Shown: in pieces, positions 17,994 to 40,614 of the stretch
Layout of the letters: every line of letters begins with the position of its first letter
Position numbering within the stretch: position 1 is the first letter of the stretch
Source of the DNA: Hormiphora californensis
Lineage: Eukaryota; Animalia; Ctenophora
NCBI GenBank assembly: GCA_020137815.1
Contig: CM035350.1
Coordinates: forward strand, 1,054,001 to 1,118,000
DNA length: 64,000 nucleotides
Direction of reading: 5' to 3'
Made by a program: the position numbers and the translations under genes
Notes under the pieces: model-generated
The model's database searches: none
The model's input: only the letters and a program-made list of their open reading frames with translations
What the model was told of the DNA's origin: nothing

Positions 17994-18107
17994 CTTTGAA
18001 CCCTAACGCTAAAATAGGAATTGAGATTTTGCCGCTATTTTGCCCCATCTATATTATAATTTTTTTTTTTTTTTTTTTTGGAAAAACAATTAAAAATATA
18101 TACACAA

Positions 18108-18931: not shown

Positions 18932-19175
18932 GGCCAGCGTTAAAATCTGGGTGTTTGGTGAGTGCTGTCATACGGTTTTTTAGAGTTAGGGCTAAAGTAA
19001 GGTTAGGGTTTGGGTTGGAGTTAGGCCTTGACATTTCCTACCAGATAAACGTTGAATTAGCCAATACGGTTGAGTGGTTTGGCGGTTAGAGCCATTTTAC
19101 TTTTTAGTGAATCAACTTTTTAGGAAACGCGCACCTGTAAACAGGCCTCCAAACACCCAGATTGTAACGGCGCCT
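18932..19175. mobile_element. MULE-like MITE with 9-bp TSD and internal TTAGGG-like repeats
   Basis: TIRs CGTTAAAATCTGGGTGTTTGG / CCAAACACCCAGATTGTAACG; TACACTACA duplicated at 18923-18931 and 19176-19184. Related copies at about 19923-20190 and 49453-49585. Confidence 0.8.
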
Positions 19176-19408
19176 TACACTACATGATCCTTGCTGAATG
19201 CTGTGGGCGTACGCCGTACATGCACGACTCGAGGGTAGTAAAAAAGGTTAAAAAAGTGCAATGGCACTAAACAAACTCAAAATAAAAGCGACGCGCAGCA
19301 ACTAGTTGTTTTGTTTCAGCGGCCGGGCCTCATAATTTATCAGTTTTCCGTTTATGCTCGTTTTTGGTTTTTCCGTTGAAAAGCGCTGCCTTATCCCGCG
19401 CGCCTATA

Positions 19409-20297
19409 AGGAACCATAATAAAGTTCAAGAGCCTCCAAGAGCACCCAAGAGCACACCCGATCGAAGAGAGACCACACCTGAGAGCGTACCACACCCAAA
19501 AGAGACCACATCCAAGAGCGCACCACCTCCAGAAGACACCACTTCAAGAGCGCACCACATCAAAGAGAGCTCCCCATCCAGAAGATACCACGCGCAGGGG
19601 ACACCACGCGCAGAAGAGACCAGCGCGGCGTTGTATTTGCGCGTGCGGTCTCTTCTGCGCGTGGTGTCCCCTTAGTGGAAGCTCTTACGGTATTTCCCAC
19701 GCCCCGTGGGAAAGTTTTCGACCGTGGGAAAGTTTTCAAAGCGTGGGAAAAGAGAGATACATACAATAACTAAGAAAAAACAATTTATTTTTTATAGTTA
19801 TTGTATGTATCTCTCTTTTCCCACGGTTCGAAAACTTTCCCACGGTCAAAAACTTTCCCACGGGGCGTGGGAATTACCGTAAGAGCTTCCACTACCTGCG
19901 CGCGGTATCTTCTGGATGGGGAGGGCGCGATTATAATCTGGGTGCCTTGGAGCCTGTTTACAGGTGCGCGCTACCAAAAGAGTACACTTAGACCGACTTT
20001 TTTCAAACGGCTATAGCCACGCAACCACATGGCCAATTTGAGTAAACTAAACGGCATCTGTTAGAGAATCGATAGCCCTAACCGATAACCCCAAACCAAA
20101 CCCTAACCAGACCCTAACGGATAGCCCTAACCCGTCGCGCGCGCTAAAACTACGAATTGTTAGCAATGAAAGGCACCCAGATTTTAACGTTTTCCGGATG
20201 GGGAGCTCTCTTTGATGTGGTGCGCTCTTGAAGTGGTGTCTTTTGGAGGTGGTGCGCTCTTGGATGGGGTGCGCTCTTGAACTTTATTATGGTTCCT
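19409..20297. mobile_element. Composite TA-flanked TIR element containing nested foldbacks
   Basis: TIR AGGAACCATAATAAAGTTCAAGAGC at both ends and AAGAGCGCACCAC-type subterminal repeats. Contains a hairpin (19596-19672), a MITE (19675-19892) and a MULE-like MITE (about 19923-20190). Confidence 0.75.
19675..19892. mobile_element. Near-perfect foldback MITE, TA TSD
   Basis: GTGGAAGCTCTTACGGTA...TACCGTAAGAGCTTCCAC with arms of about 100 bp and repeated CGTGGGAAA motifs. Confidence 0.85.
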
Positions 20298-20476
20298 TAT
20301 CGGGGCTAGCAACGTTTTATTTGCCAAGTTTTTCCGCCGTCTCACAAGACGCAAAAAAAACGATATGAACCCCGGCACCGGGTACACTATGAGTCTCTTG
20401 ATATCACTGTCTTTTTATGAACGATCAAATCTTTAGGTGCATGTAATTGGAAAAGTTAAAATTATATTGAATTTAG

Positions 20477-21187
20477 GTGATGGCAGAAAACGAGTGTTCT
20501 GGTTCAAGAGAAAAGAATCGTCAAACATCAACGCGGCCTGTAAGAAGCTCAATCAGAGACCCCAAGGCGAACTATATTTTTAATTTGCTACGAGCTAAGT
20601 CACGGCTCATCAAGAAAGAAGACAACGGACAGACTTCAGAAAAAGCAGAAAGCAGCGATGGGTCGTCAGATAAACTGAGAAGAAAAAAGGGCGTCGAAAA
20701 TAGTTCCCGCCAATCAGAACAGTCAGAAAACCCTAGGTCCAAATGCTCTGGAAAGAGACAGAAAGATTGTCCCAAGAAACAAGAAAGTATGAAGCGGAAA
20801 AGAGATGTCCGAAAGACGTTGAAAGAGGCTCGAGAAGAGCTCGCACCCAAGGATGTTCTTGACTGTACCCCTTTACGGGGAATAAAGAAAGCCACCGACC
20901 TCTCCTTTCTTGGTAGCATATCCCCAATCAGTTTCGACACACCAGAGAAGAAGCGTCGCAAGAAGAAACCTGGGGAACAAAATATCACTCCTACTAACAG
21001 AGACAATGCTGATAGGTACTTGGTTCAGTTGCAAAGACGGCTAAAGAACGCCCCAAAATGTGAGATCCCTTCACAGATGATGAAAAACAAACCCAGTCAG
21101 TCGCAAATTTTTAATATTGATGAAGTGTTGGATGAAGAAACAGTCCCTATTGACGACGAAGAGGTACTGGATGAATATTTTGAATAA
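20477..21187 (+). CDS. Hypothetical Lys/Arg/Ser-rich protein with acidic tail
   Basis: 236-aa ORF with an AG just upstream (TTTAG GTG ATG) and an NLS-like PEKKRRKKK; no recognisable domain. Confidence 0.45.
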   Translation: MMAENECSGSREKNRQTSTRPVRSSIRDPKANYIFNLLRAKSRLIKKEDNGQTSEKAESSDGSSDKLRRKKGVENSSRQSEQSENPRSKCSGKRQKDCPKKQESMKRKRDVRKTLKEAREELAPKDVLDCTPLRGIKKATDLSFLGSISPISFDTPEKKRRKKKPGEQNITPTNRDNADRYLVQLQRRLKNAPKCEIPSQMMKNKPSQSQIFNIDEVLDEETVPIDDEEVLDEYFE

Positions 21188-21383
21188 TTGTATTGTAATC
21201 TGTATTTTTATTAGAATTTTGGGATTTTCCTACCTCTTTTGAGATATGGACACAATTTTAAAGTTAGTTTAATTTATTTGTTTACAGCAGATTTTTACAT
21301 TTATATTATCAGTTGTCATTGTTGTACTCAAGCAGTTTTGGTCTTTCCCTATTTACTAACAGTCCGTCTATTTTCTTCTAAGA

Positions 21384-21982
21384 ATGTCCACGTTTTCGAT
21401 TTCTTACCAGCCAGAAGAGGAGCCAGATCCACCATTCAATGGACTATCTTGCTCTTTCGACGAACAACAGTATCATCCTGATCAGCCTGATACAGCCGAG
21501 AATCCTCGGAAAATGAAAGCCGAGGATTATGGTAAGTTTCAAATTTTTGGTGATTATGCGACTCACCTGTGACTCCCAAAACCTTGTTTCCGTGCTCAAA
21601 CTCATTTCTCCCAGGCTGTATGAAGCGGCTAAGGATGAAGTCGGAACGGCTAGTGAAGGAGAAACGAGAATCCCCGGAATCCTCTAATGAAAGTGAGCAG
21701 AGAGAGAATGAGATCTCAGAAGAGAATGACATCTCAGAAGAGAATGGACAGAGCTCATCTGCATCAGTAGTGTTGGAAGTTTCTGAAGATCAAGAAAACA
21801 GCAATACCAACTCCGATGTTGAAAGTTTAAACTCGGGTCATCCTGAAGATCTGGGTGATCCTGAAAACAACAAAAACAGCAAAAACGGAAAAAAAGACAC
21901 AAAAGACAAAAACGGAAAAAACAACACTGTCGGCAACGACAACACCGTCGGCAACGACAACAATAATTACAAGCAACCTTAA
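21384..21982 (+). CDS. Hypothetical low-complexity protein (possible two exons, 21384-21531 and 21615-21982)
   Basis: Two ORFs separated by a GTAAG...CCCAG intron-like gap; E/S/N/K-rich. Confidence 0.3.
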
Positions 21983-22628
21983 GGCGGATGTTTGTCGATG
22001 TCTGGTGTGGGACGATCAATGCACATTCAGGTTTATAGCTGAGTGTGCCTTTATCGTACTACGCATCGAGAAACATGCGCCTTTAGAGACACTTACAAAG
22101 CACCTCCAGGCGCTATGTAACTGACTTTATCGCATTTCTGTGAACGATGAAGGGTGAGATTCCCTACTACGCCTAGCTCGGGCCGGGGCTAAGGTCTACC
22201 ATATTGGTAGCTATAGTTTCTAAAGACTCTCTAGAATCCTTTTAGTGTTACAGAAGTGAGAGAGAGAGAGAGCGTGTTTATTTATTAATGTCAATTTTAA
22301 GACGACAATTAACAGGGAACTTTTATTAATGGGAAATTTTTATAAAACTGGGCATAAAAATGTTGATTATTCAATGTATTTAAAATCAAAACTTTTATTT
22401 TTAATGTGTATCTTGAGATCTTATTTTATCTTTTTTTATCGGTGTTAATTTATTGGATGTGATATGTTTTGGCTTTTTTCATTTGACAGATTTTGTAAAC
22501 TGGTGTTATTTTCCTCCTCGAACCTCATTCACTTCCCCCCTGTGGAACTAGTAACTCCCACCCCTCTCCGGTTATCAATCCCTCCCCGCGTGTACCTCCT
22601 TTTAACCCCCTCTCTCCGTATTATAGTG

Positions 22629-23626
22629 ATGGACGATTATGTAGCAGAGTTTGAGCGGAAAAGAAAGAACAGCAAAGACACCCCAGTTGCCATTCTTGCT
22701 ATTCATGTTCTTAACGATTTTGTCAGTAAGAGTAATGTGGGAACACTTCAACAACTTCTAGAACAACTCAAGGTATCAAATATTTTCAATCTTCAACATT
22801 CAATATCTCGTCCTCGTCTCTCAATCGATGCCAACTCTAACACCCCCTTCCTCTCAGGAGCTCAGTAAACAGTTGAAGGCGACTGCAGGGAGTTCCACAA
22901 CATCTGTAGCATCTGGTTGTGATCTCTTTGTACGGTTCATTACCCTCTCCCGGGGTCAGAACGCCCCCTCCTCAGAGATCGATATCTTGGAGTGCAAGGG
23001 GTTCGATCCAGTGCGGAAATTCCTGGTTGATAGGGGCAACTTGTTCATGAAGAGGTTGAAGGATTCCAGGAGAAAGATAGCCCAGTTAGCGTACCCCTTC
23101 ATCTCGGACGGGGTTACAGTTCTCACTGTCAATATCTCCCGGGTAGTTCTCGAGATCCTGATGAAGGCCCACGAGAAGGCTAAAAAGTTCAAAGTGTTGG
23201 TGACTGAGGGCGAGGAGGGGCCTCTCATGGTGAAGAAACTAAACGACCAGGGCATCCAGGCAACTCTAATCCTGGATGCTTCTATTGGTTTTGTAATGGA
23301 GCGGGTCTCATTTGTTTTAGTTGGAGCAGTGGGGGTGGTGGAGAATGGAGGGCTTATTAACAAGTTGGGGACATATCCAGTTGCTGTGATGGCTCGATCC
23401 CTCAACAAACCATTTTATGTTGCCGTGGAGAGTTTCAAGTTTTATCGGAATTACCCTCTCAGTCAGCTGGATCTACCAAATGATGCGAAGTACGAGAATC
23501 CTGAGGACACAAAACACCCTGAGGTGGATTTTACTCCCCCGAAATACATCAACAAACTGTTCACAGATCCTGGGTGTACTCACCCCCTCGGCTGTTAGTG
23601 ACGAACTGATAAAGTTGTATATTTGA
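22629..23626 (+). CDS. EIF2B1: Translation initiation factor eIF2B subunit alpha
   Basis: SVASGCDLFVRFIT, VLVGAVGVVENGGLINKLGTY, KPFYVAVESFKF and C-terminal FTD(L)GVLTPSAVSDELIKLY. Intron 22773-22857; a 1-nt insertion at about 23569. Confidence 0.95.
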
Positions 23627-23703
23627 GTGTGTGAAATAATGTGTTGTGGTTATATTTTTGTTGTTTTAAAAACGAATTACCTTTCCCGTAGCTTCCCCTT
23701 CCC

Positions 23704-26700
23704 ATGTCTGGTGCCCTAGAGATGTATAACTCTGAGGAAGACGAGACTAGTCATGGTTAGTTAGAAGAGGGATCGTGGTTAATTTATACCATGGGGCCAG
23801 GGGGGTCGTGCTTAGTTTAGCAAGGGAACAGGCCACAGGGGTCATGGTTAGTTTATCAGAGATTATTGGGGGATGTTGAGAGCATGGTAATAATGTGGGT
23901 GGGGGGTAAGTAAGGGTTAGTTGGATTTGATCGTGTGGGGATCATTATGCGTTTATGGGGGGGGGGGGGGGGGCATGGATGCAATGCAAGGGAGGGGACT
24001 CCCCTCAAGGGATATGTTTATTTAGTGAGGTTACCGTGTGTTTTATTGACTACAGGTTGTTGTTACCAAGCTTCATTCTTCTCTAAAAGTTGGAAGGCCA
24101 TGTATGGAGCACCACCACTTCTCACCAAACCTCTCTCTCTCACCATCCCTCACCCCTACTGTAAGTGCTATTTGTTCATATAGCATGCCTGATAATATAA
24201 TCTATATGTTTCAAAATTCCGAATGAAGTTTGGTTTGTAAAACAGAGAACAGGGCCTGATTCCCTAGTTCTCTAATTTACAACAATCTGTAGCCAGGATG
24301 ATCAGATCACAATACCTTTTGCGTGTTAATCCTCTGATCTATAGACACGGTAACCTCACCCACCCTTCCTATCTGACCCCTCTCTTCTGTTTCAGAGGGG
24401 AAGAAAGAGGAGGAAGATGAAGAGGATGATGAGGCCTCTGGAGAGGAGCAGTCTCGAACAGTAACCTCAGACGAGGGCTCTAACCCACCAATAATTGATG
24501 ATGGGGATGGTTTCTCTGCGAATGAGGAACTATCCCAAGATGACGAGGAGGATGAGAGGTTCTCTGATGATGAAGATGCTGCTGGGTGGACTTTTGATGA
24601 TACCCTCCAGTCACCCCCACCAGGAGATAGAACTGTGACGTCATACTCGCCAGAGAATTCGTTCCAGGGAGAGCCGACACCGCCTCACAACAGAGAGGGT
24701 GAGCCGACACCGCCTCACAACAGAGAGGAAGCCCCTGCTGAAGAGTTCGAACCAGCCGCTCCAGCTGGGGATAATACCCCCTCAGATCAACCCCTGGAGA
24801 CTCCAGAAGATTCATTCGAGGAGGGGGATAGAGAGGAGGGGGACAGAGAAGAGGGGGCTGAAAGGGAGGAAGATGAGGAGAAGGGAGAAAGTGCAGAGAA
24901 GGGAGAAGATGTTGATGAAGAAGATAAGGAAGATCTGGAGATAGATGAGGAAAGCAAACCTGATGAAGATAAGCTTTCAGAGAAGTCAGCTGGAGAAGAG
25001 AGGGATGAAGAACCAGAGAAAGAAAGAATCGAGGAACTGGATAGATTATCAGAGAAGGAATGTGAAAAAGAAGAAGAGCCTGTTGAAGAAACTCAGGAAA
25101 CAGAGAGGGTGGCATCACCTGAACCTCACGATCCGACTGGTGAAGAGGTAGAAGGTGAGAGGGAAGAGAAACCAGGTAGTCCTGAAGAAGTTGAACCATC
25201 AACTGAGGAGGCTCAACCTGAGGAGGAGGAACCACTAGACAATACTGGAGATGAAACCAAGGATGTGGAGGAGGGGGTAGTAGACAAGGAAAACGATCAG
25301 AAGCTGATAAATGATCCATTTGATATGAAGGATGACTTGAAGGAAAAGCTGACTGAGTTTGGTGTGACTGAGCCTAAGAGAGATGGTGTGTACAGATGAT
25401 AGTCTTGAGAAGGAGAGCATGGAGATAGATGAAGCAGCAATGTCTCCAGTACCCACAACAGAAGAACCCAATAGAGAGGAGGAGGAGAAGGAGGAGATAG
25501 AAGAGAAGGAGGAGCCAAAGGAAGAGGAAGAAGGGATGGTTGAGTATGAGAAGAATGGAGGTTCAGAGTCCCCTGAGTATGCCATGACACCAGATGATCA
25601 GGTATCTGAGGAGAGAGATGGACCTCACACCCCTCCCCCTGCTACATCTCCCTACAATCCTGAAGAGCCAACCTCCCCACCCTCCCAGGGCCCAGTGCAC
25701 CCCACCAGGCCGTGGACCCAGGACCCCTTCGGGACCTCACACCCCAACCGAACCCCGCCCTGTCTCAGCCGACAGATCGTTCGAATCCAACACTTCAGAA
25801 GAGGGAGGTGTGCCTCCTTTTATTATGATCACAGAGAACGAATATCTTTCAGCTGCCAAGTAAGTTCTGTCTCATTCAATATTCATTCTCCCTCAATCTC
25901 CCTGACTTTCCAGTTAATTTGATTCCCTCCTGTGTCTCTCAGACAACTGTATTGTCTCCCCTCTTCTCTCAAATAATTGCATTGCCTCTCCTCAGGAAGA
26001 GATCAAGTAGAGACAAGAAGATGGTGTGCCAGTGTGACTTTGTTGCAGAGGACCCTGCCAGCCACTGCTCTGATACTTGCCTCAACAAAGTGCTCATGAT
26101 CGAATGGTAGGTCGTGTGTGGTGCCCTCACCCCTTCACTGTACCCACTTCCCCCTCACTTCACTCTGCTATTTCAGTAACTTCCGGCATGTGTTGTGTAT
26201 CAAACCTCTTTACCCCTCCCCACTGACCCCCTTCCTCTCCCGCTATACTAACACACTGTGTTTCAGCAACTCCCGGTGTCCGTGTGGAGACCTCTGTAAA
26301 AACAAGAAGTTCCAGAAGGCTGACTACGCCCGAACTGAGCCCTTTTACACTGGAATCAAGGGCTGGGGACTCAAGGCCACCCAGGATATTATGCCTGGAG
26401 ATTTTATCATGGAGTATTGTGGGGAGGTTGTGAATCAGAGTGACTTCAAGAATAGAATGGATGCATATGGGGCACGGAGGAACAAACATTACTACTTCAT
26501 GACAATTAGTAAAGATGAGATCATAGATGCGAACAACAAGGGAAACTTGTCCAGGTTTATCAACCATAGCTGTGACCCTAATTGTGAAACACAAAAGTGG
26601 AGGGTCAATGGGGTACTGAGAATCGGGTTCTTCGCTATAAAAACTATCAAGCAAGGCTCAGAGATCTGCTTCGATTATCAGTATCAGCGATACGGGTTAG

Positions 26701-29700
26701 TGAAGTTTTATCATATTACAGCTAGGCTATTATTACAGCTATCTGCTATGTTTTAGTTGGGGTAGAATGTAGATCCCCAGTAACATGCGTAAACAACATT
26801 AAACAACACATACATTCCCATTTCCAGTGACGATGTCCAGAAGTGCTATTGTGGGAGTGAGAAGTGTAGGGGAACATTGGGCGAGAAACTCTCTGAGCTC
26901 GCACCCAAGGCCACAGATAGCCCCAAACCAGGGCGACCAGAGCGAACAGAGACAAAGAAGAAAGATACAGAGTCAGTGGAACAGGCCCTTGCTAAGATAA
27001 CCCGGACATCAGATGGTGGTCTGCTCTCCACAGATCATGCTTTGCAACTGAGTAGGCTGATGGTACAAACTGATGGAGTTGAACACAGGATTCTCATACT
27101 GAAAACACTGCAGGTATTTAAATTGTCGCGATACTAAATCACAACCCATCACCCAAATAACGTAGAATCCTAACCCACTACTATCTAGAGAACCAAGGAC
27201 CCGAGTGCACTGAAGAGGTTCCTAAGTTACCAAGGCCTCAATATTCTCTGGTCCTGGATGGTCGATGTCAGTGAGATACCTGCACGACAAAGGAACGAGT
27301 TCAAACAGGATATCATCTCTGTACTGACAAACCTGCCCATAGCTACCAAGAACGCCGTGGAAGATAGCAAAGTCATGAAGGTTAGTTAGTAATTTCATGA
27401 GAGAGTGAGGTCACCCACCCAGCGTGGTATTCCTTTATATATCCCCTCTCATTTTACAGGTGGTAAAGAAGTGGGTGGATGGGGAACAGAGTAGCAGCAA
27501 TTCATCACAAGCAGACAGTAGTGAGGAGTGTGCCCCAACAGACACTACTACTGAACAAGAGACAGACACAGAGGGAGACAAGGCAGTTGTGGACCAAGCC
27601 CAGATACTACTTGATAGTTGGGGTACACTAAAAGAGGTCTTCAAGATACCCAAGAAGGACAAGAAGGAGGGAGGTACGTTCCTAGGATCCAGACAAATAT
27701 TTCATTAATTTAGTTTCTTTACTAATAGTTTGTCCCTCTCTACAGGTGGACCTAAATCGTTCTCTCTTGGTGCGTTCCTGTCCTCCTATAACGACTCCTC
27801 TTCATCGCCCCCTCTCTCCAACTCCCCGGGGAAGAAGCCCCGACAAGAGGAGTTCCCAGAGAAGAGAGCCAGTTCCAGGGAGGGATCCTGGGATCACCTG
27901 GGCAGCAAGAGACGCAGGGATGGAGAGAGAGACAGCAGGGACAATAGGAAGAGACAATGTGACGAGAGGGAGAGGTCACGTGATAGGTCACGTGATAGAT
28001 CCCGTGAGAGAGATGACTACAGGTCCTCCTACTCAGATAGAAGGTCCCGGTTTGATGATAGGAGAGATGCTGGAGGAAGGTTCAACAGAGATCGGAGAGA
28101 TGGAGGAGGGGGGAGAAGGGACGATTATAGGTCACGAGATGATAGGGGTGATAGAGGAGGAAGGTTTGATAGCAGTGATAGGGGAGGAAGGTTTGACAGT
28201 AGGAGAGACAACTTCAATAACAGAGGCAGATCACCCCCACCCCATAGAGGCAGGGAGCCTGGTGTAGATGAGTTTGGTCGGAGTATAGAAAACAGACCCA
28301 AGGAGTTGTCTAAACCACCCAGGATGTCACGGTTCACTGATAAAACAGATGAAGATGAGAGACCACCCTCCCCTGACCAGCCCCCTCCAGAACCTGTAGT
28401 ACCAGAGAAAATGATGTCTCCAGCCCCCAAGGTGCCACCAATGAGGTATCCCCCGCCCCAATTCGAGGGGACCAGACCGCCCTGGTCTGGGAGGTTTCAA
28501 CCCCAGGGTGCAGGCTGGTGTCCCACCTATGTTCAGACCACCAGTTGGCAGGATGCCCGATCTGAGCAGCATGACCAGACCCCCTGGCATGGATCACCAA
28601 GAGTTCAATAAACCTCCCCCTGAACCCCGGGCACCCCTCATGAGGTACCGACCTGACACTAGACCACAACAGCCACCACGGTACGAATACAGGCCCCAAA
28701 CTAGACCATCTTGGAATACCCGGTATCAGGCCCCTCCACGGTTTATGGAAAGTAGACAGCAGGCCCCCAGAATGCCACTAGGTGCCACACCCCGCCTTGC
28801 CGCTGCTAGCCAACTAGGAGGGTTTGGACTCCAGCAGATGCAGCCCTTCCAGGCGGCTCAGCAGGCAGCGGCCCAGCAGGAATACTTTAAACATATTGCA
28901 GAACAGAACATGCAACAGAATATCCAGAACATGATGATGCCATCAGCAATCGCATTTGGAGGAGCTCATTTACAGGTATATAATCAGGTTTGAGGCAGTC
29001 AGGTTGTACAATAATTGTCGCGGCAGGTTCCTTCCCGCGCGGTGTATATTTGAGCTATCGCTAGTTTGAGGCGCGCTCCCAATGCTAAGCAGCAAGATGA
29101 CAGCACTTGCTGCACCACCGTCCCACAGCTGACACAGTACAAAACACAGCGGATAGCTGTCACAAACTCCACGCACAAACAAGAAATAGTTGATTGCAGA
29201 TACACTAGCAGCTAATACGTCATCTTTACAATAGGGTTCAATAAATCTCCCAGCAATCCTCTTCCTCCTCTCACTCACAGTAGTCCAATCTGTCTTCTTC
29301 ATCATTCCATGGAAGCTGTCATTTGAGTGTTCAGGGTGTGAGAGCGTCCCAGAGATATCCCTCCACTTCCTAGCACTGACACTTCCCCCACATATCACAT
29401 AGAGGGCGAGGAAGGTGGCCTCTACAGCGGGCGGGGGCTGCTTAAACGACTTGATAATGACAAGATCTCTACTGTATACATTTAGGCAATCTGCAAGAGC
29501 TCTCTCGGCAGCCATGCATGCAAACAACAAGTAACGTGTTATATCTCCTCTCTCAGGGTATGTTAGCGAGTAACGCGGCAGCACTGCAAACAGTGGCGTC
29601 TACTGCACAGCTTCCTGTGACTAAAGCAACACCATCTCCCAATCTTGCTACAATCTCTTGTGAGTAGGGACACAAAATATCAGGCTACCCAGTGAACCCC

Positions 29701-30696
29701 TTATCCCCGATATCTCACTCCTTCATCTCACTTCTTCTCTCTACCCCAGTGCACCCTTAGTAGTTAGTACACCTTTATGTCCTCGATACTAACTCTTTCT
29801 TCTCTCCTCCTCCAGTACCCCAGCACCACCCGCCTCCTCAACAACACCAGCAACATCAGCAGCATCAACCTGCCCTTCCAAAGGAGCCAGAACCGTTCAA
29901 AGCAGCCCGACCCCCTCCCACCGCTGCCCCTCCAAAACAGGAGGAGAAGAAGATGCCTCCCCACTGGAGAACAGCCAAGGATGCAGATGGGAAGACGTAT
30001 TATTATCATGCTATCACTAGGGAAACACAATGGGACCCCCCTGAGGAGCCAGGGAGCCGACCTGCTGTACCACCCGTTCAAAGTGAAACACCCGCCTCAC
30101 CAATGAAACCTGTAGTACAGCAGCAGCAGCAGCCACCCATACAGAGGGGCAGACCCAAAGAGAGCTTTGAGAGTCCCCAGAAACCACAAAAGGTAACAAC
30201 TACTAGAAAAAGTTTAGAACAGGTTTAGATGTAGTGTATAACTTCTTAGATTCGATGGTCCTAACAATTTGATCCCAATCAGATGGCTAAGAAAAGTGAG
30301 CCCCAGCCGGTTGCTCACAGCGTCGAGAAAGACATGGATCCGGCTGCTAAAAGGGCACTCAATGATTTCAAGGCCCAACTTGCCAAGGTGGTAGTGGGAG
30401 TGCTGGGAAAGTACAACAAAGTTGATTGTAATATTGGCCGCATCATGGACAGTAAAGACTTCAAATATCTTGCCAGAAAGGTAAACTCCCCCTCTTTTTG
30501 TCCCGAACCCTCTTGTGACATGTGGCCCTCTTCTAACACCTACCCCCTCTCTCAGCTGACACATGGTCTGACGGAGAAAGAGATGCAGCGCAAAGCTCCA
30601 GGAGAGTTGTGTGTTACGGACAGTCTTAAACAGAGAGTTAGGCAGTATATATCTAGTTATATGAGTAAGTTTGGTCCTATCTATCATCGGACGTAG
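23704..30696 (+). CDS. SETD2: Histone H3K36 methyltransferase SETD2/Set2
   Basis: Acidic N-terminus, AWS, SET (KGWGL...RFINHSCDPNCETQKW), post-SET CYCGSEKCRG, WW (PPHWRTAKDADGKTYYYH...TQWDPP) and SRI (DFKYLARKLTHG) domains across GT-AG exons. Confidence 0.93.
28970..29515 (-). CDS. Stand-alone dynein heavy chain stalk microtubule-binding-domain (MTBD)-like protein, nested antisense in a SETD2 intron
   Basis: ALADCLNVYSRDLVIIKSFKQPPPAVEATFLALYVI...W...L...F...D...DVLAASVSAINYFLFVRGV follows the dynein MTBD pattern; lies essentially within SETD2 intron 28976-29556. Confidence 0.65.
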   Translation of the reverse strand: MAAERALADCLNVYSRDLVIIKSFKQPPPAVEATFLALYVICGGSVSARKWRDISGTLSHPEHSNDSFHGMMKKTDWTTVSERRKRIAGRFIEPYCKDDVLAASVSAINYFLFVRGVCDSYPLCFVLCQLWDGGAASAVILLLSIGSAPQTSDSSNIHRAGRNLPRQLLYNLTASNLIIYL

Positions 30697-31185
30697 TTAG
30701 TCTGGGTGTGTATGTTTATGAGCGGGCATTTAATTTGAGATTCTGTATCTGTGTGTGCGTCTATGTGTAAGTACTTTTACTACCGGGGTTATACGAAAGA
30801 GAAAGTGTTCCCCTCATTTATCTAACGACAGTGTTATATTGCAAACCTCCCTTTTAGGAATGTATGCTTTCTTATTTTATAAACCCCATTAAACTGATTT
30901 GTTTAATTTGATTTTACAATGTGATGGGAACCAATGTGATCACAATGGGAACCAATGTGATCACAATGGGAAGTGGGAACCAGAATGTGACTTGATGAGT
31001 AAGGGGTCTCTGGCCCTCCCCTTACTCAAATTCACTACATTATCTCTTCGTGAACGAATGGAGGGCGCGAAGGTTTTATTCTTACGCTGCTGGATTCTGC
31101 GCGGCGCGAGTAAAAGTTTTCTCACAATCAAATTAAATCTGAAATTTCAACTCACAAACTTGTTTGCAGTTTCAAAAATCACGAG

Positions 31186-33684
31186 ATGGATCCGTTTCTT
31201 GTGAAAAAGATCCCTAAAGACACTGTTTCACGGCTTGAGGAGTTTGCTCTGTACCTCAGAGAAAGCAAGAAAGAGCGGAGATCATATGTCAGTGTCGTAA
31301 AAACTCTCAACGTTTTCAGAGTAAGTTGAAAACTCCTGCCAAAGTTCGATGAGTCTACTTTTCGGACTTCGGTCTCCCGCGAGAATAATGATATTGCACA
31401 CGATCAACAATTATTTTTCCTTGCAAAGCAGATACAGTTTGCAGTCAACTTTAATCCTGCATACTTCCACAGGACCTGATCTGTACTGCAGAGTGGGTTA
31501 CGGCCCGAGAGCTCATCAAGATCATCAAATGTTACTGTAAATACCTCCCACTGAGCCAAAGCAACGAAACCGATGTTAGCAACGTGGTACGGAGAATCCT
31601 CAAAATCATTCGAGAAGAGAATGCCGGCCCTGAAGCAACCAGTCTGGCTGATGGGATCTCAGCTTTCTTTAAATCGGACATGAAGCCCTCAAACCTAGGC
31701 AGGTTTGAATGCGCATGAGGGTGACTAGTTAATGATATATAGTGATTTATGTCAGGATAATATTGGAGAATAACACTGCCCCTCATCAGGTCGGACCTGC
31801 AAGACAATATCCTGAACAGTATAGTGGAACTGCTTGTTGAATTGGATACCAGCAAATCTAACATAATCAACATGGCTCTAGAACATATACACTCAAATGA
31901 GGTCAGTAGACAATCCTTCAAACTCCCTTTCTATAGCTCCCTTCTTTGGACCCCCCCCCCCTTTCGAGTTAAATAACAACCCGTTATCCAGTCATATTTT
32001 CAGCGAATCCTCACATACGGCCACTCCAACACGATACGAGATTTCCTGTTACATGGTCGGAGAGCCAGGAACTTTGAGGTGATTGTGTGTGAGAGTGGGC
32101 CCTCTCTCCAGGGACACAAGATGGCTGCTGAACTTAGTGAGGGAGGAATCAAAACTACAGTGATAGCTGACAGTGCTGCTTTTGCTATTATCCATGCAGT
32201 AAACAAGGTAAATCAATCTTGTTACACAGCGAACAATTTCCCCCTGAATCTAACTTGTAACTAGCCATCCCTGAATATCTCCATCTAAATGGTGTTGTGT
32301 TTTGCAGGTCATTATAGGAACCCATACAATCATGGCTGATGGTGCACTCCGGGCTACTAATGGGGTTCACCAGTTAGCAATGGCGGCCAAGTATTTCTCA
32401 GTCCCTGTTATAGTGTGTGCTGCACTCTACAAACTATCACCCACCCACCTGTGCTCCTATGATCCCGATGCGTTCAATAAGGTCATAGGGCCTGAGAACA
32501 TGCTGAACTTCAGTAACGCTAAACTACACTCCAAGGTTAGTGCTGAGTTAGTTGTTTTGTAACTACCATTGAGCGGGTATTGATTAGTGACATTTGTAGC
32601 CATGGTGATGAAGTTGATAGGACTGGGAGGGGGAACCAACTCAGGCAAGACAACACTCTGTACCCAACTATCTGCTGCCTTCCCTGGATCTATCCTGGTG
32701 TTTAACCAAGACAAGTATTTCAAGACCCTGGAGGAGGCAGAGAAGGTGTTCCCAGAGGGGGAGGTGAACTGGGAAACTTGCAATGCGCTACACATGGACC
32801 AGCTAGTAGAGGACGTGAAAAAGGCACGAGAGGAGAGGAAACACTCTATTATAATAGTTGAGGGGCATCTCGTCTTGTCCTACCCTCCCCTTTACAAACT
32901 ATTCAATAGGATGTTCTTTGTTACTCTGCCACTTGACATGGCTAAAACGCGACGTGACACCAGGACATATGATCCTCCCGATGGTCCGGGTTACTTTGAG
33001 AATGTTGTGTGGCCCATGTATAATGAGATATATGGGGAGGTCCGGCAAAATCCTGACCTTGATGTGACATTTCTGGATGCAACCGAACCGGATACCTGTT
33101 ACAACTTTTTAGAGCGTGTAGTAAAAAGCTATCTTGATTGAGATGAAGTTATCTAGCGGGAATTATTTACTTGAGGACTTAAAGGTTTTAGAAGGAGAAT
33201 GTAAACTGTTTTTTATGTGTGTAATTGTGCTTGTGATATGTTTTTAAATTTGATGGGTTCTCTCTTTAAAGTTTATCGACTTCATGGTGCTGTGTTCTTA
33301 GTTCCAACCTTCCCTTTAGTTCCAACCCTCCCTTTACAGGTGCTGATATCTAATCCTGATTTCGACTACGTGCCAAGTGATCTGATAGAGTTGTTTATCA
33401 CCAACACTGGTGGACATGCTCCCTCATACCTCTACAGAATCATATCAGGTACTGCACACCGCCTCTCCCAACTAGATTCATTGTACTAAATTGGTTCCTT
33501 TCCTCCTCACTCTACCCTGTTTTCCCAACCTCAGCTCTCTGAACACCATCAGTAACCACTAACCCCTCCCCCGCTAAGAGTTATAACACCCTTCATTAAC
33601 CTCTCTTCTCCCCCAGAGTTGTATCACCCTGACGACTACGACCTTGATAACATGTGTGTAGAAACTGTGGAGGATGAACTATGA
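31186..33684 (+). CDS. EIF2B2: Translation initiation factor eIF2B subunit beta
   Basis: VSNVVRRILKIIREE, ALEHIHSNE, VIVCESGP, IADSAAFAIIHAVNKVIIGTHTIMADGAL and [39 protein letters not shown]. Confidence 0.95.
32602..33141 (+). CDS. NMRK1: Nicotinamide riboside kinase (NRK/NMRK), intronless, nested on the same strand in an EIF2B2 intron
   Basis: LIGLGGGTNSGKTTL P-loop, QDKYFK, IIIVEGHL and RRDTRTYDPPDGPGYFENVVWPMY. Confidence 0.9.
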   Translation: MVMKLIGLGGGTNSGKTTLCTQLSAAFPGSILVFNQDKYFKTLEEAEKVFPEGEVNWETCNALHMDQLVEDVKKAREERKHSIIIVEGHLVLSYPPLYKLFNRMFFVTLPLDMAKTRRDTRTYDPPDGPGYFENVVWPMYNEIYGEVRQNPDLDVTFLDATEPDTCYNFLERVVKSYLD

Positions 33685-33812
33685 ATTTGATATTTTATTT
33701 TGTGTGTGTCTTATGATACGGATCTCTAATTCTTTCAATTACAGTGTTTTCCTATAATACATCTCACCACCCCAACTCCCTAAATAACCCCCATCTCTCT
33801 CTGTGTAGCATC

Positions 33813-34864
33813 ATGGCGGTGGAAGGTCGCACCGTGGCTCCCCCCGTTCGCAAAGTTATTATTCCACCCTGTGGTGCTATTCAACATTGTCGACAGCTTT
33901 CGAGAGGCGGAATGACAACTGTAAAAGAGTCATCGGAACCCTCATGGGTCGCTACGACAAGGGTGTTATCTACGTGACAGAGTCCTTTGCTGTCCTCACC
34001 AAGAGACTGATGAGGAGGTATCCATGGGGATGGATTATGCCATGAGAATCAGTGAGATGCAGAAGAAAGTTAACACGAACATGTACACGGTGGGGTGGTA
34101 CAGTAGTGGTATACAGATAAACGATTATAGCAGTCTCATCCACTCCTTCTACAAGGTCCAGTTCCCATCCCCCGTCCATCTAACTCTGGATACCGCTCTA
34201 AAGGTAACGTAACTTCAGTAATCTAAGGGTGGCTGATAACAGGTTTCGGGTCAGGTTTCATGTAACAGGTATCACGTAGCAGGGTGACAGGTAGTAGTGT
34301 TGTTCTTATCTAAACCTTTCCGTCTCAGGAGCAAAAGATGAAGATCAACACACACATCACCCTCCCTATTGGTGTGAAGAATGGAACTGAGGGGTGCATC
34401 TTTACCCCTGTCCCTCATGAAATCAAGGGATCGGAGGCTGACCAAGTGTGCCTGAAGTTCTTCCAGGGCCTCAAGGGAACCAGGAAAACGCCCAACTTCA
34501 ATGATCCAGAGCAGATAGTTCACAGTTGTGATGATATGATGACCCAAATCAATGTTATCTTGGGATACGTCAAACAGGTAACCATGGTAACCTACAAAAC
34601 ACACAATAATACTAATATGTAGCCTATAACACCACGTGGTAACCCCCTGCGTCCCTCCCACAGGTATCAGCTGGTGAGATGCCCATGGATAAGGAGGTGG
34701 GACGACAGTTGATGGAAGTAGTCCAGTCGATACCCAACCTGGAGTCGGATACCATTACCAACATGTTGAACTCTCACATGCAGGACTTATTAGCGGTGGA
34801 GTACTTGACGTATTTGACGAGACAGCAACTTGCCATTGGAGCCCGAATCAACCAGATTCTTTGA
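33813..34864 (+). CDS. EIF3F: Translation initiation factor eIF3 subunit F (MPN domain)
   Basis: HPVVLFNIVDSFERR...RVIGTLMG, VGWYS, SPVHLTLDT and NSHMQDLLAVEYL; three single-base indels in exon 1. Confidence 0.9.
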
Positions 34865-35031
34865 GGGAGTTTACATCTCTTTTAACATTCCTTGTTTTAT
34901 TTATTGAAGCCTTCCCCGGGAAACATCTTGAGTCTTGTTTCTATTAAACTCCGTGATTTTACTTGCCCCCCCCCCCCTCCGATACTACTTCAATACTGAA
35001 TAGAAGCTCAATATCTCTCACAGTTTAGGAC

Positions 35032-36568
35032 ATGGTATCTTGTGATGAAGATGATGATGAAATACCCTTTCTAATTCCAGCAGACAAACCTTCAATACCA
35101 GTCACCATAATAACAGGTAAACACACAATATCAAGATTAGAAACCACCCCCCCCCCCCCCCCCCCCGGATAATATTGAATACAACATTCTCCTTCTAGCC
35201 ATCCTTGAATACAACTCCCTCTCCTTCTAGGCTATCTAGGGGCGGGAAAGACAACACTACTGTCCTACATTCTGACAGAACAACATGGTAAAAAGATAGC
35301 AGTGATAGTGAACGAGTATGGGGAGGGAGAGGGAACGGAGCAGCCTGGAGCACTAGGTGTCGGAGAAGACAAGTAGGTAAGAGTTAACTCTTACAACTCG
35401 AGTTGTAGTTAGAGTTTTGGGGGAATGCTGCTCTCGGAGCTATATTGACACACGCCCTCCCTCCCTGATATAGATACGAGGAATGGTTAGAAATGAACAA
35501 TGGGTGTTTATGCTGTAGTGTGAAGTCTGACACGGTGATGGCACTTGAGAAACTTATGGAGAAGGCGGGGAAGTTTGATTACATTTTAATTGAAACCACC
35601 GGTTAGTAACTAACTTGTTGTTAAATGATCCAGTAGTAGCTACCTCCCCTTCTAGACAACTAACTTAGGTCATCTTGCCCTGTTAGTTCCCATTCTGAAC
35701 TCTCTCCCAGGTTTGGCTGATCCAGGAAATATTGGCCAGACATTCTGGGTGGATGAGGGTCTATCTCAGCTATATCTAGATGGTATAGTGACCATGGTAG
35801 ATACTCACAACTTCGCCCGGACTAAGAAAGAAAGTAGGGGCAGTGAGTTTGGGAGACAGATCGCACTGGCTGATGTTGTGATTCTCAACAAGATGGACAT
35901 GGTGGATCAGATGACAAGGAATCAGGTTGCAGCTGATATCAGATCCATGAATAGTGCGTGTATAGTACAGTTCACAGACCACAGCAGAGTGAACCTGGAT
36001 GGGATATTGGGAATTCAGGCTTACACCAGTGTACCCCCTCCTAGGTAAGATATTTCCAGGGAAACTATTTTCCTGAAGATCCCTGTGACACCAAGTGTAT
36101 TGACACATACCTCTCACCAGTACTGTGAAACATGAGATGTCAGAAGGTATCTCAACTATAACTCTCACTACGGAGAAAGTGTTGTGTAGGGAGGATCTTG
36201 AAAACTCCCTCCAATCCCTTCTGTGGGCCGAACAGCCTGAAACTGCCTCTGATAATAACCGGTCAGTTGATTGTACCAATTGTTTATCAAGATGTAGATT
36301 TTTCAGCAAAATTCCCCAATACTTGTGTTCCAACTCCCCCCCCCCCTATTTCAGATCACACGGTGCTGCTGATAGTGATGATATGGTGATCCTGAGAATG
36401 AAGGGTCGAGTACACACTGAGGATGGGTGGTTCATGGTACAGGGTGTAAGAGATCTGTACGAGCTCACACCGATACCTGATCCAGAGTCCCAACAACATC
36501 TTATCTTTATCGGATCACATCTCGACTCTCAGAGACTCCAAAATGTCACTAAAATGTATCCGAGATGA
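35032..36568 (+). CDS. ZNG1: Zinc-regulated GTPase metallochaperone ZNG1/CBWD (COG0523)
   Basis: [49 protein letters not shown] and CobW-C ILRMKG...VQGVRDLY. Confidence 0.92.
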
Positions 36569-36933
36569 TTTATTGTTTTATAGTTGGAGGATTTATTTGT
36601 GAACGGGTTTGCTAAATAAAGTGCGATTTTTAATAATGCGAACCGGGGGCGCGCATTAATAATAACATAATTCCATTTGCGCGTGCTAAATCCGGTTCCT
36701 GATAAGATAGAGACTTTTCATTAGTCGCATTAGAAAGATACAGTTTTTTTCTTTTCAACGCACCCAGGATCAAGTCTTTATCTTATCAGGAGCCAGAGAT
36801 ATGATCAAAACAACCGACAAAAAACTTTCCCACGGTGCGTGGGAATTTTTTGCGGTTCGCTTTATTAAAAATCGGACTTTATTTATGTTTTAATCTCCCG
36901 ATATACCTCTAACCTCTACCCCCGTAATTAGCG

Positions 36934-37274
36934 ATGTTCTTGGCTCGGCAACACGCCGCCTTACTGCCCAAGCATGCTGCTGGCATCGCCTCTCTGCCCA
37001 ATGCCATCATTACGAGGATCGCGGGACGGTTCAAGACCGAGGAGGAGTACAAGCCTCATGTAGACCTCGAATTGGAGCAGAAATACGATGTGCCCATCCA
37101 CGAGTTGTTGAGCAGGCTGCCCGTGGGTAGCAGTGAGGGAGCCATGGTGATGGAACAATATGTGGGACATATCCCCTGTAATGGAGCCCTCGCACCAACG
37201 GTATAAACCACCTTATATCATGTACAATAATATCTTTGCTACTCGTCCTCTCTCTCTCTCCTCTCCTCTCTCTC

Positions 37275-37312
<38 letters not shown>

Positions 37313-39903
37313 AGCTATCTCTTCATTTCTATCTCAATTTCTCTCTCTCTCTATCTCTTCATTTCTATCTCAATTTCTCTGTCGTCTTTGTCTATTTTCT
37401 ACTCTATATGGGGATCTCATCACGCACAGTGGACTGCTGGGTGAAATGTGGGATCTGATAACCACTAGGATGATCTGATACTCAGTGGGGTGATCTGATC
37501 CTGGGTGGGGTGATCTGATCCTCAATGGGATGATCTGATCTTGGGTGGGGGGATCTGATCCTCAGTAGGGTGATCTGATCATGCATGTTGGGTGATGTGA
37601 TCTGATCTTGATGACGACGATTTAGGGACCACCAAACATGCATGGGTGGGATCAAGTTTCGGGTGTTTTTGCATTATATAGTAAGACTAGCGCACCCATT
37701 GGATGCGCCTCAAGTAGCTTTTTGATTACCCACCCGGCTTCGCCGGGTGGTTCTTTTCGCCCTTTCAACGTCAATAACACGGTTGCCATGGCAACTGGAG
37801 TGGTAACTATGGGGACTGAATTATTAAAATTCATTCGAAAATATTAACAAACTTCCACTGGAAGTTCCAAAAGTGTGAACAGCAGCTTTACAGCTTTGGT
37901 CATATGAAGTGTTTTATGAAGGAGCAGCCTGTCGCTTAGATACCGCCTAACGAACGACCACCACTTCGACGACGTTCATCTCCAAATTATAATAGAGATA
38001 CTATTGTTTAACACCCCTTCACCCTATGCTAATGTTATACCATGCCAACACCTCTCACCCCCTGTAGGTAACTGGAGACAGGTTGTCCAACGGAGTGGCT
38101 ACAGTTGCTGTTGACTCTGCCAGCCCCATTGTACACCTGGGCGTCTACCTGGGACTGGGAACTCGACACGAGACCAAGGCCACTGCTGGCATGCTCCAGG
38201 TCATGAAACATGCCTGGTTGGGCACCACTACCAGGCGAACACTAGTTGGTGGAGCTAGGGAGCCCGTCCAGTGTGGAGCTAACATTGTATTTACCCCTGG
38301 TAGGGATGTTACTTCTATCACCGCATCCTGCCCCCGGGACAAGGCTGACCTGTGAGTAACATAAATCACAAAATAAGTTATCAGTTATGAGTTACCACCT
38401 AACCACTAATCGTTAGTTACAACTGGCTCCAACTACCCGGTAACTGCACGCACATCTCTAGTTACTAACTATTGTGTTTCAGTGTGCTCGACCACATGGT
38501 ACAGAACCTGATCTGTCCAGAGTTTTTCAACCACGAGCTGCACACCCCCATCGCTAGAGCTGCACAGACCTCTGCTGTAGAGCTGGCAAACCCTCTTAAC
38601 CGCATGCTCGATACGGCTCACCAGGTAGGTCAATTAATGGATCTAGAGGTGTAGGTCGTCTGTACATATAATTGTGAAACCAACCGACAATGTAGGTTGC
38701 AGTTGTCTGTTCTTTCTAAGTTCAGCCAACAAATCTCCCCTCCACAGTTGGCATATCGAGGAACTGGACTTGGCCGATCTCTCTACTACGCAGGAAACTC
38801 TGGTCTGGACAGGGATGCCTGTCTTGACTTTGCTCTGGAGAACTTCAGGGATTCTAATAACATTGCAGTTGTTGGTGTAGGTATGTAACCCGGTAACATC
38901 CCCAGATCACTGCATCTCTCTCCTTTCTCTCTCATTTCCCCATATTACTCATCTTCCAGGCTGTAACGGTCTTTCTTTCACCCAGGATTTGATGCTGATA
39001 CAGTTAACGTGTTGGCTGATGAGTTCCTGTGGTCTCTAGAAGGAGGTTCTGTCTCTAGCGCTCCATCCACCTGGACCGGAATGAGGGACGCACACATTGA
39101 GGCACCCGGAGCTGGGGGCCGTGCCCTATTCCTGAGTGAAGGAGCCCCCATTGGCAGTAAGGATGCCCTAACTCTGGACCTTATTGGGTACCTAGTGGGA
39201 GGAAGTGCAGCACCCAGTGTAGCTCATGGTGCTGTCCAGACCAAACTAGCTGCAGCAGTTGGGGCTGTAGCTGGAGGTCCCTTCACTTCAGAGACTGTCA
39301 ACATCAGTTATAGGGACTCTGGAATGTTCGGCCTCTCTGTATCAGCAGCTAACGGAGCTGAGGTAACAAAGATATGTTTTCATACCACTAATCTATTAAC
39401 TGCACTTCTATCTAACACATCTAACCACTCTCTGTTCCCCTGAATCCACATCTATATCTAACATCTCTGTTCCCCCTAGCTCGGTGATGTGTTGAAGTGC
39501 TCTATTGGTGTCGTCAGGGGAGTTAGTCAGGGTGTATCTGATGAGGATCTACAGGGTGCTAAGAACCGACTCAAACTATCTGTCCTTAATGAGGTACCTC
39601 TCCATCTCCTTTCTTTCCTTCTTCTCTACTCCTTTTCTACTCCAAGATGTCCCCCACTATTTAACCATTCTAACACTCCTCCCTCCCATCTAGCGATCCA
39701 GCGTGTCTGGTGTTCTGAACGGTACAGCAACTGAAGCCCTTGCTGGGGGAGCTGCACGATCAGCGGGAGATATCTGCGCTGCTATTGATGCTCTTACTGC
39801 TGAAGATGTCATTGCTGTGGCTAAAAAGGTTGCCACATCTCAGCCGGTCCTGGTTACCTACGGATCTGCTGAAGATATGCCCCTTCAAAGAGAACTCATC
39901 TAA
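36934..39903 (+). CDS. UQCRC2: Cytochrome b-c1 complex core protein 2 / M16 peptidase-like, mitochondrial
   Basis: LSNGVATVAVDSASPIVHLGVY..GTRHE, NISYRDSGMFG, DLQGAKNRLK and IDALTAEDVIAVAKK...YGSAEDMP; no HXXEH motif seen. Confidence 0.82.
37470..37610. repeat. About 21-bp tandem repeat (GGGTGATCTGATC core) in UQCRC2 intron 1, after a CT microsatellite
   Basis: Repeated GATCTGATC units seen directly. Confidence 0.8.
37687..37998 (-). mobile_element. Non-autonomous Helitron, second copy
   Basis: Reverse-complement homologue of 18108-18416 with the same TC/CTAG termini and terminal hairpin. Confidence 0.85.
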
Positions 39904-40614
39904 ATTATTGACTTTGTATATAACCCACGCAGCAGTGTGTTGAGTGTGAAAGATCGAGAGAGAAATATTGAAATCATGAGATCGAGTGTGTTGCCCCCGA
40001 TTTGAAGTTATTAGTTCACTGTTTCTTGGATTACTAAATTCACGGCTGTTTTACATTCGTCCCTCCACAGCCCGGTCACACTGCAGTGCGCTGATTTGAG
40101 GACTTGGTTGTAGGGCGCGCGGATCTTCCAACGGTGAGAGTTCAGTGGTCTTCGCGCGGGATGTTGCACAAACAACCACCCAGATGCGGACCCAGGAAAC
40201 CGTGATGCATCACCCCACTGACAAGCTCATGTTTTGCCCCCGGCCCCTTTTAGTTCCAATGTGAGAATGATTATTTGTGGAGAATAACTGATATCATTAC
40301 CGGCTTTATCAACTCTTACAAATATATTTTACTTTCATATAACATTGTGGAAGGGAGCATGGGCTGCAGCTTGGAGTACTATAATAGGCGTAACCAGTAC
40401 GCGACGATCGACAAGCCATTTCAAACAACACACCGAATATATATTTACTGTCTTCTAGAGAGAGGTTGATATAGTTTCCCGCATATTACAACAACGCGTC
40501 GTGTATAACTTTACTGTCAAGGTAACACACACACACACAATGTTCAACAATTGTAAACGTAAAGTGGGGCACGGGGCGAGAGCAGCTGAATAGTAAGTAG
40601 AAGGAAGGGGGTGT

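Follow-up and report, generated by a model that had tools for sequence, protein, structure and literature searches.

In the ctenophore Hormiphora californensis, a complete, intronless gene for a predicted nicotinamide riboside kinase lies within the fifth intron of the eIF2B-beta gene, on the same strand and, as judged from the protein records of related species, this nesting is old and has been kept across distant ctenophores. We think it fairly probable (our rough estimate is 0.55) that the two genes share a promoter, i.e. that the kinase mRNA derives from the eIF2B-beta transcript by addition of the spliced leader at a TAG inside the intron and by formation of a 3' end before the host acceptor. 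The analysis was done with a 64,000-nt stretch of DNA, called the window below, to which all coordinates refer.

The host gene

The seven exons of eIF2B-beta (31186..31320, 31473..31702, 31790..31901, 32004..32207, 32308..32535, 33340..33448 and, through the stop, 33617..33684, all on the plus strand) form a single open frame of 361 codons, codon 362 being the stop. The predicted protein is 75-76% identical to the Bolinopsis and Mnemiopsis orthologs (75.8% over 360 aa in the full-length match to Bolinopsis XP_063682249.1), and Pfam IF-2B matches fall in exon 4 (E 5e-19), exon 5 (E 5e-15) and exon 6. Among named proteins, those nearest to the predicted ones come from lobate ctenophores. Another Bolinopsis record, P0036 (XP_063681928.1, 482 aa), consists of a 361-aa eIF2B-beta preceded by 121 N-terminal residues that resemble a piece of a transposase, and is probably an annotation artefact.

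Contigs of public RNA data from 8 of the 11 listed runs (X7, X8 and X10 were left out) were aligned to the window, and they bridged all six introns of eIF2B-beta; the first joint (31320/31473) was seen in X1, X2, X5, X6 and X9. Intron 5 (32536..33339, GT..AG), which follows exon 5 in phase 0, is 804 nt long, as against 75-168 nt for the 11 other RNA-confirmed introns nearby. It was skipped exactly in contigs of three of the eight runs, X2 and X3 of one study and X6 of another, and in X11, a more distant run, loose letters before exon 6 resembled the end of exon 5. The 3' splice site of intron 5 (33298..33339) is a tandem 18-nt pyrimidine-rich duplication followed by CAG. RNA cover of introns 1-4 and 6 was confined to the exon edges and is a mere hint. 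An X1 contig carried 24 unplaced letters, possibly from a leader, ahead of 31165, upstream of exon 1.

The nested kinase gene

The kinase frame (32602..33141, plus strand, 179 aa) takes up 540 of the 804 nt of intron 5; that it fills most of the intron had been noticed when the locus was read from its sequence. It matches human Nrk1 across residues 5-164 at E 1.1e-30 (uridine kinase: 6e-7) and therefore it is not a chance ORF. Ten clusters of related kinases, 53-61% identical to the Hormiphora protein, were found, and the relatives carry NRK names from JGI and NCBI. The P-loop and the essential carboxylates are retained, K16, D37 and E87 being invariant in 12 aligned sequences. Structures of human Nrk1 are available (PDB 2qg6 and 2p0e), and the accessible part of Tempel et al. 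2007 (PMC1994991) places Asp36 and Glu98 among the essential or substrate-binding residues. Thr12, Lys16, Asp36, Phe39 and Glu98 of the human enzyme correspond to T12, K16, D37, F40 and E87 of the kinase, and Arg129, Arg132, Tyr134 and Pro136 to R118, R121, Y123 and P125. The two differ at Tyr55, Asp56 and Gln135, which are replaced by Trp57, Glu58 and Asp124. By family membership the ORF is a predicted nicotinamide riboside kinase.

Parts of the kinase coding sequence were present in RNA contigs of three of the eight runs, which belong to three studies, two of them oligo-dT. The X2 contig covers it from 32994, according to the depth and loose-end tables, the X6 contig covers 32740-32887 and has an in-frame insertion of 9 letters, and the X5 contig covers 32947-33144 and continues with about 54 letters resembling the 3' untranslated region. 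It must be noted that these contigs give neither strand nor level and that DNA may be present in the libraries, thus the kinase cover is a sign of presence only, and the depth of the host, above or near that of the kinase, does not rank the two genes; in the aligned runs none of 32600-32740 was covered, so the contigs bear only on the later coding sequence.

The 3' untranslated region of the kinase (33142..33297, plus strand) is T-rich. The hexamers AATAAA and ATTAAA were absent from it and also from the 3' region of eIF2B-beta, and were present in three neighbouring genes. The folding of intron 5 was unremarkable (z 0.00), the Rfam search gave no family above gathering scores in 30000-37000, no long repeats were found flanking the kinase, and no transposon was evident in the 804-nt intron.

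Acceptor signals and the spliced leader

The ATG of the kinase stands 66 nt from the host donor, counted from the first base of the donor, and two bases ahead of it there is a TAG ending at 32599 (32597..32599), which we consider a predicted spliced-leader acceptor. Splicing of exon 5 to 32600 would give a phase 0 junction reading Pro-Trp-stop-stop. The sequence-only reading had described all three features, and its description holds.

Leader letters were found directly at two neighbours of the kinase. At 33807-33808, ahead of the eIF3F-like gene, they occur as loose ends in X1, X3 and X5 (acceptor 33806..33808, plus strand, 124 nt past the stop codon of eIF2B-beta), and in X2 there are 11 leader letters before 36930, at 36930-36931 (acceptor 36929..36931, plus strand), before a gene with a weak Pfam M16 match, called M16-peptidase-like here. 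These loose letters agree, letter for letter, with the 3' part of the spliced leader of Hormiphora, which is carried by at least 56% of Hormiphora long reads (PMC8527503, accessible part). Leader trans-splicing thus operates at this locus, on two neighbours of the kinase.

Both acceptors seen with leader RNA have the form TAG|C and are 2-4 nt before the ATG, and the same holds for the acceptor of the kinase. Of 7 plus-strand starts, which were chosen by eye and one of which is off by 1 nt, 6 have a TAG no more than 4 nt upstream, vs 6.7% of all 1070 ATGs. Among the RNA-confirmed acceptors in 30282-36931, the cis acceptors were, unlike that of the kinase, CAG in 11 of 12 cases, mostly with pyrimidine tracts, and the leader acceptors were TAG in both of the only two sites behind this contrast; the base in question may tell cis from trans acceptors in ctenophores.

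The nesting in other ctenophores

Looking for the nesting in related genomes, which had been put forward as a check, gave a positive answer: five of the ten kinase clusters could be tied to host exons, three by direct sequence and two by equal contig size alone. The evidence consists of protein records. P0016, which comes from a contig of 75,577 nt, reads from host exon 5 through 28 codons of the intron into the complete kinase, and all 76 residues of its host part are identical to Mnemiopsis leidyi eIF2B-beta. In two other cases a record of host exon 5 overlaps a kinase record in a shifted frame, P0058 with P0014 by 53 nt (reached by none of 2000 shuffles) and P0057 with P0007 by 16 nt (4 of 2000 shuffles); these were the only fits among 136 pairs, and the partners have a common contig size of 1206 and 1327 nt, respectively. 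Equal contig sizes of 6220, 18615 and 4141 nt were likewise noted for kinase and host exon pieces. In Bolinopsis microptera the two genes are found on one record of 26,206,493 nt, and their accession numbers differ by 21. For the other five clusters (P0004, P0005, P0008, P0009 and P0010) no host link was found, and these are weak blanks, host fragments having been incompletely retrieved. The full-length host records P0029 and P0030 had no contig size in common with any kinase. In one further lineage the kinase is in two pieces (P0186 and P0013), and here it may carry an intron. JGI metagenome contigs were scanned with the kinase alignment and with P0016, and among the 251 and 99 candidate stretches, respectively, no relative was confirmed.

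The spacing between donor and ATG could be measured in four lineages and was 66, 74, 79 and 84 nt. Six records from three clusters have an open frame ahead of the Met, and in all six the residue next to it is Arg. This is expected from an AG acceptor 1 nt ahead of the ATG, although it was read from protein records, not from DNA. We also considered an eIF2B-kinase fusion made through an in-frame acceptor 9 codons before the Met in the relatives, and rejected it: the Arg before the Met and the P0057 overlap favour an acceptor 1 nt before the ATG, and the 482-aa Bolinopsis model is also without a kinase part. In the kinase tree support was obtained for 2 of the 10 inner branches, and with most of it unresolved the tree was not used for dating.

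Promoter signals and neighbouring genes

Just 5' of eIF2B-beta, a cluster of GCGCG/CGCGC in CpG-rich DNA (31065..31108, no strand assigned; 3 motif matches, CpG o/e 1.0) is likely the promoter region of the unit. A second such cluster precedes the gene at 36934, and from the end of the first (31065-31104) to 36649 there is none. CpG o/e in the 500 nt upstream was 0.28 for the kinase and 0.35 for the eIF3F-like gene, vs 0.87 for eIF2B-beta and 1.30 for the 36934 gene. No CpG-rich promoter-like signal was found upstream of the kinase by this proxy test, by which 13% of 635 sequence windows are equally CpG-poor and in which the exact sequence of the Mnemiopsis motif was not the query. The GC-rich motif of Mnemiopsis is itself reported, in the accessible part of PMC12221973, to mark less than half of the promoters (beyond loop promoters, 21% of genes).

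The eIF3F-like gene (33813..34864, plus strand; Pfam JAB, spliced in X1-X4, named from its JAB/MPN match) is likely the second member of the eIF2B-beta transcription unit, and a CobW/CBWD-like gene (35032..36568, plus strand; Pfam cobW and CobW_C, TAG 3 nt before the ATG) is a possible third. The first exon of the eIF3F-like gene has one-base indels relative to RNA contigs of several runs at 33864, 33897 and 33993, which are probably assembly errors.

On a larger scale, about eight plus-strand genes follow one another in 20480-39900 with gaps of 124-490 nt, most of them starting with TAG-NN(N)-ATG, in an operon-like train along which CpG-rich promoter-like patches are found at 19100-20400, 31065 and 36650. 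The train includes a second eIF2B regulatory subunit gene, alpha-like, on the same strand 8 kb upstream (22629-23600; IF-2B E 5e-51), thus there are three translation-factor genes within 12 kb, the eIF3F-like gene coming directly after eIF2B-beta. A CpG-rich GCGCG cluster at 40115-40154, between the convergent ends of the M16-like gene and an AAA ATPase gene, does not lie at an obvious promoter; it is possibly a loop anchor or an enhancer of the kind described in the accessible part of PMC12221973. The suggestion that the nesting couples NAD salvage to eIF2B found no backing beyond the linkage itself, the neighbours being mixed housekeeping genes.

The sequence-only reading had argued that the kinase has almost no room for a promoter. 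The spacing of 66 nt stands, but the conclusion does not follow from it, because a promoter could be in the host exons and the leader would mask the start. It is possible, though in our view doubtful, that transcription of the kinase starts at an internal promoter of its own, situated in host exons 4-5 or introns 3-5, and that host and kinase are independent overlapping units, like many other nested genes and their hosts; the kinase mRNA would then either have a short outron replaced by the leader or be capped directly. The distance from the donor would be no obstacle to this, since promoters can overlap exons. Most promoters escape the CpG proxy, and the motif is lacking at the eIF2B-alpha-like gene (22629) as well. 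Mammalian nested genes, moreover, differ from their hosts in expression in either orientation, according to the accessible part of PMC11694760. Against an internal promoter, CpG o/e is 0.21-0.38 throughout 32000-32900, like that of a gene body, and the 66-84 nt spacing was kept in four lineages with no space gained. A transcript starting upstream of 32536 would, in addition, still carry the host donor, so it would face the same choice between cis- and trans-splicing.

How the kinase mRNA may be produced

We favour the shared-promoter model, which builds on what is observed (the gene, the intron and its splicing, partial RNA cover of the kinase, leader on the neighbours, conserved nesting) and in which the promoter, the leader on the kinase, the poly(A) site and the relation between the two mRNAs, competition or co-production, are steps that we infer. 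According to this model one promoter near 31065-31170 would serve eIF2B-beta, the kinase and probably the eIF3F-like gene, and each pre-mRNA would face a choice in intron 5. On the cis route 32536 would be joined across to the strong pyrimidine-CAG site at 33339, giving eIF2B-beta mRNA. On the trans route the leader would be added at the weaker TAG 64 nt into the intron, and 3' cleavage in 33200-33300 would complete the kinase mRNA, host exons 1-5 being discarded as a long outron. Within the shared-promoter model we lean towards either/or use of each precursor, which known operon biology favours; rescue of an already excised intron is, within the same model, a somewhat less probable but serious option.

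A difficulty for the leader model is that the acceptor of the kinase could be captured in cis by the donor, which stands 64 nt upstream of it. One answer considered was that a gap of this size does not suffice for cis-splicing; it is weakened by the gap in the relatives, which is about 73-83 nt and within the intron range of 75-168 nt. Taken as a claim of its own, it is rather unlikely that the excised 804-nt intron itself is the kinase precursor, so that one pre-mRNA yields both eIF2B-beta and kinase mRNAs. Cis-splicing would lock the donor in the lariat, and the inner TAG, left unpaired, would take the leader, with poly(A) added as well, which would explain why the donor fails to capture the TAG acceptor. 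If this were true, ctenophores would recycle spliced introns into protein-coding mRNAs, a new way of making an mRNA. The route would have been kept since the cydippid-lobate split (about 180 million years according to the accessible part of PMC12221973, applying if the Hormiphora lineage is pleurobrachiid) and would be a candidate general answer for same-strand nested genes.

The acceptor might instead be used in cis, and exons 1-5, joined to 32600, would gain an alternative last exon that soon runs into a stop; the kinase would then be made by re-initiation, or the isoform would tune eIF2B-beta. The donor-acceptor distance of 64 nt and the Pro-Trp-stop junction, whose stop overlaps an in-frame ATG at 32608, speak for such use. 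We find it improbable: no joint between exon 5 and 32600 was present in the eight runs vs the 804-nt joint in three (a weak argument at this low cover), the shortest of the 12 confirmed introns has 75 nt, the second Met is not retained in the relatives, and none of the best 150 representative proteins matches both halves of P0016. That the gene is a retrocopy, either dead or young, or an artefact of the assembly, its RNA cover being leftover intron, is very improbable in spite of its intronless structure, its thin cover and the 1-nt indels by which the window departs from RNA in the eIF3F-like gene, since the frame is fully open, the catalytic residues are invariant in the 12 aligned sequences, the gene is found in this intron also in lineages where the identity to the Hormiphora kinase is no more than 58-62%, and the longest A run after the stop is 3; the conserved position and the intact frame also exclude the processed pseudogene that the sequence-only reading had named as a way in which it could fail.

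Comparison with known systems

A search of the literature, which covered mostly open papers with the Hormiphora supplements outside its scope, found no account of this kinase-eIF2B-beta pair, nor of nested genes that are freed by the leader in ctenophores. Among known mechanisms, the nearest to the kinase locus are unusual or 'alternative' operon arrangements that Morton and Blumenthal reportedly described in C. elegans in 2011. In C. elegans operons generally, one promoter is used and leader splicing frees the internal genes; the median gap is 129 nt, compared with 124 nt between eIF2B-beta and the eIF3F-like gene here (PMC7668243, accessible part). SL2, however, is tied to an upstream poly(A) site according to the same source, whereas the kinase acceptor follows a live cis donor in a coding intron with no preceding poly(A) site.

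Same-strand nested genes are common in ctenophores. In Hormiphora californensis, 2357 nested genes in 1654 hosts were counted, many of them parallel (Schultz et al. 2021, PMC8527503), and the accessible part of that genome paper leaves the processing mechanism open; the present pair may be among the genes counted there. The kinase locus resembles these parallel genes in having a whole gene inside one host intron on the same strand, in a species with leader on most mRNAs. About half of the Hormiphora nested genes are flanked by transposons according to the same part of PMC8527503, unlike the kinase, and the locus also differs from the parallel genes of that paper as a class by its deep conservation and near-fixed spacing. 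A glass sponge and a dinoflagellate, both of which use leaders, are similarly rich in nested genes (PMC10282587, PMC12584245, accessible parts), and mammalian nested genes are common in both orientations (PMC11694760, accessible part).

There are further likenesses outside leader biology. Intronic snoRNAs and mirtrons are released from a host intron without a promoter of their own; being non-coding, they need neither cap nor poly(A), and the likeness holds only if the excised-intron route is true. CPNE1/RBM12 is said to have the same type of arrangement as ChAT/VAChT. The latter resembles the kinase locus in that an ORF of one exon lies within an intron of a host gene with the same orientation, with one promoter and two proteins (PMC7524744, accessible part). 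In ChAT/VAChT (PMC7524744) the nested ORF is in the first intron and a short leader exon is shared in cis, as is reportedly the case also in CPNE1/RBM12, whereas here five coding exons precede the kinase, which lies in the fifth intron after 303 host codons, and cis use leads to a stop, thus a shared leader of this type does not apply.

We regard the pair as a clean, conserved test case and a new instance of known parallel nesting rather than a new class. It is small and single-exon, sits in an internal coding intron at a near-fixed spacing, and can be tested directly with existing long-read cDNA. If the leader model is true, the pair would supply the missing mechanism and extend the reach of trans-splicing to nested genes; with a promoter of its own, the kinase would be an ordinary nested gene.

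Other features of the window

Three more ORFs in the window lie antisense to putative hosts. At 1966-3027 a 353-aa intronless ORF, seven-helix-receptor-like and without a Pfam match, is flanked by two PCAF_N exons of a KAT2-like gene, to which it is antisense, and at 8051-8440 a C2H2 zinc-finger ORF, likely another nested gene, is antisense between Sec24-like exons. On the minus strand at 28970-29599 a 209-aa ORF with a faint dynein-stalk match (E 0.72) is antisense in a SETD2-like intron, with a GCGCG cluster at 29036-29072. A LINE-like reverse transcriptase ORF (RVT_1, E 2.5e-18) was found at 16641-18002 on the minus strand.
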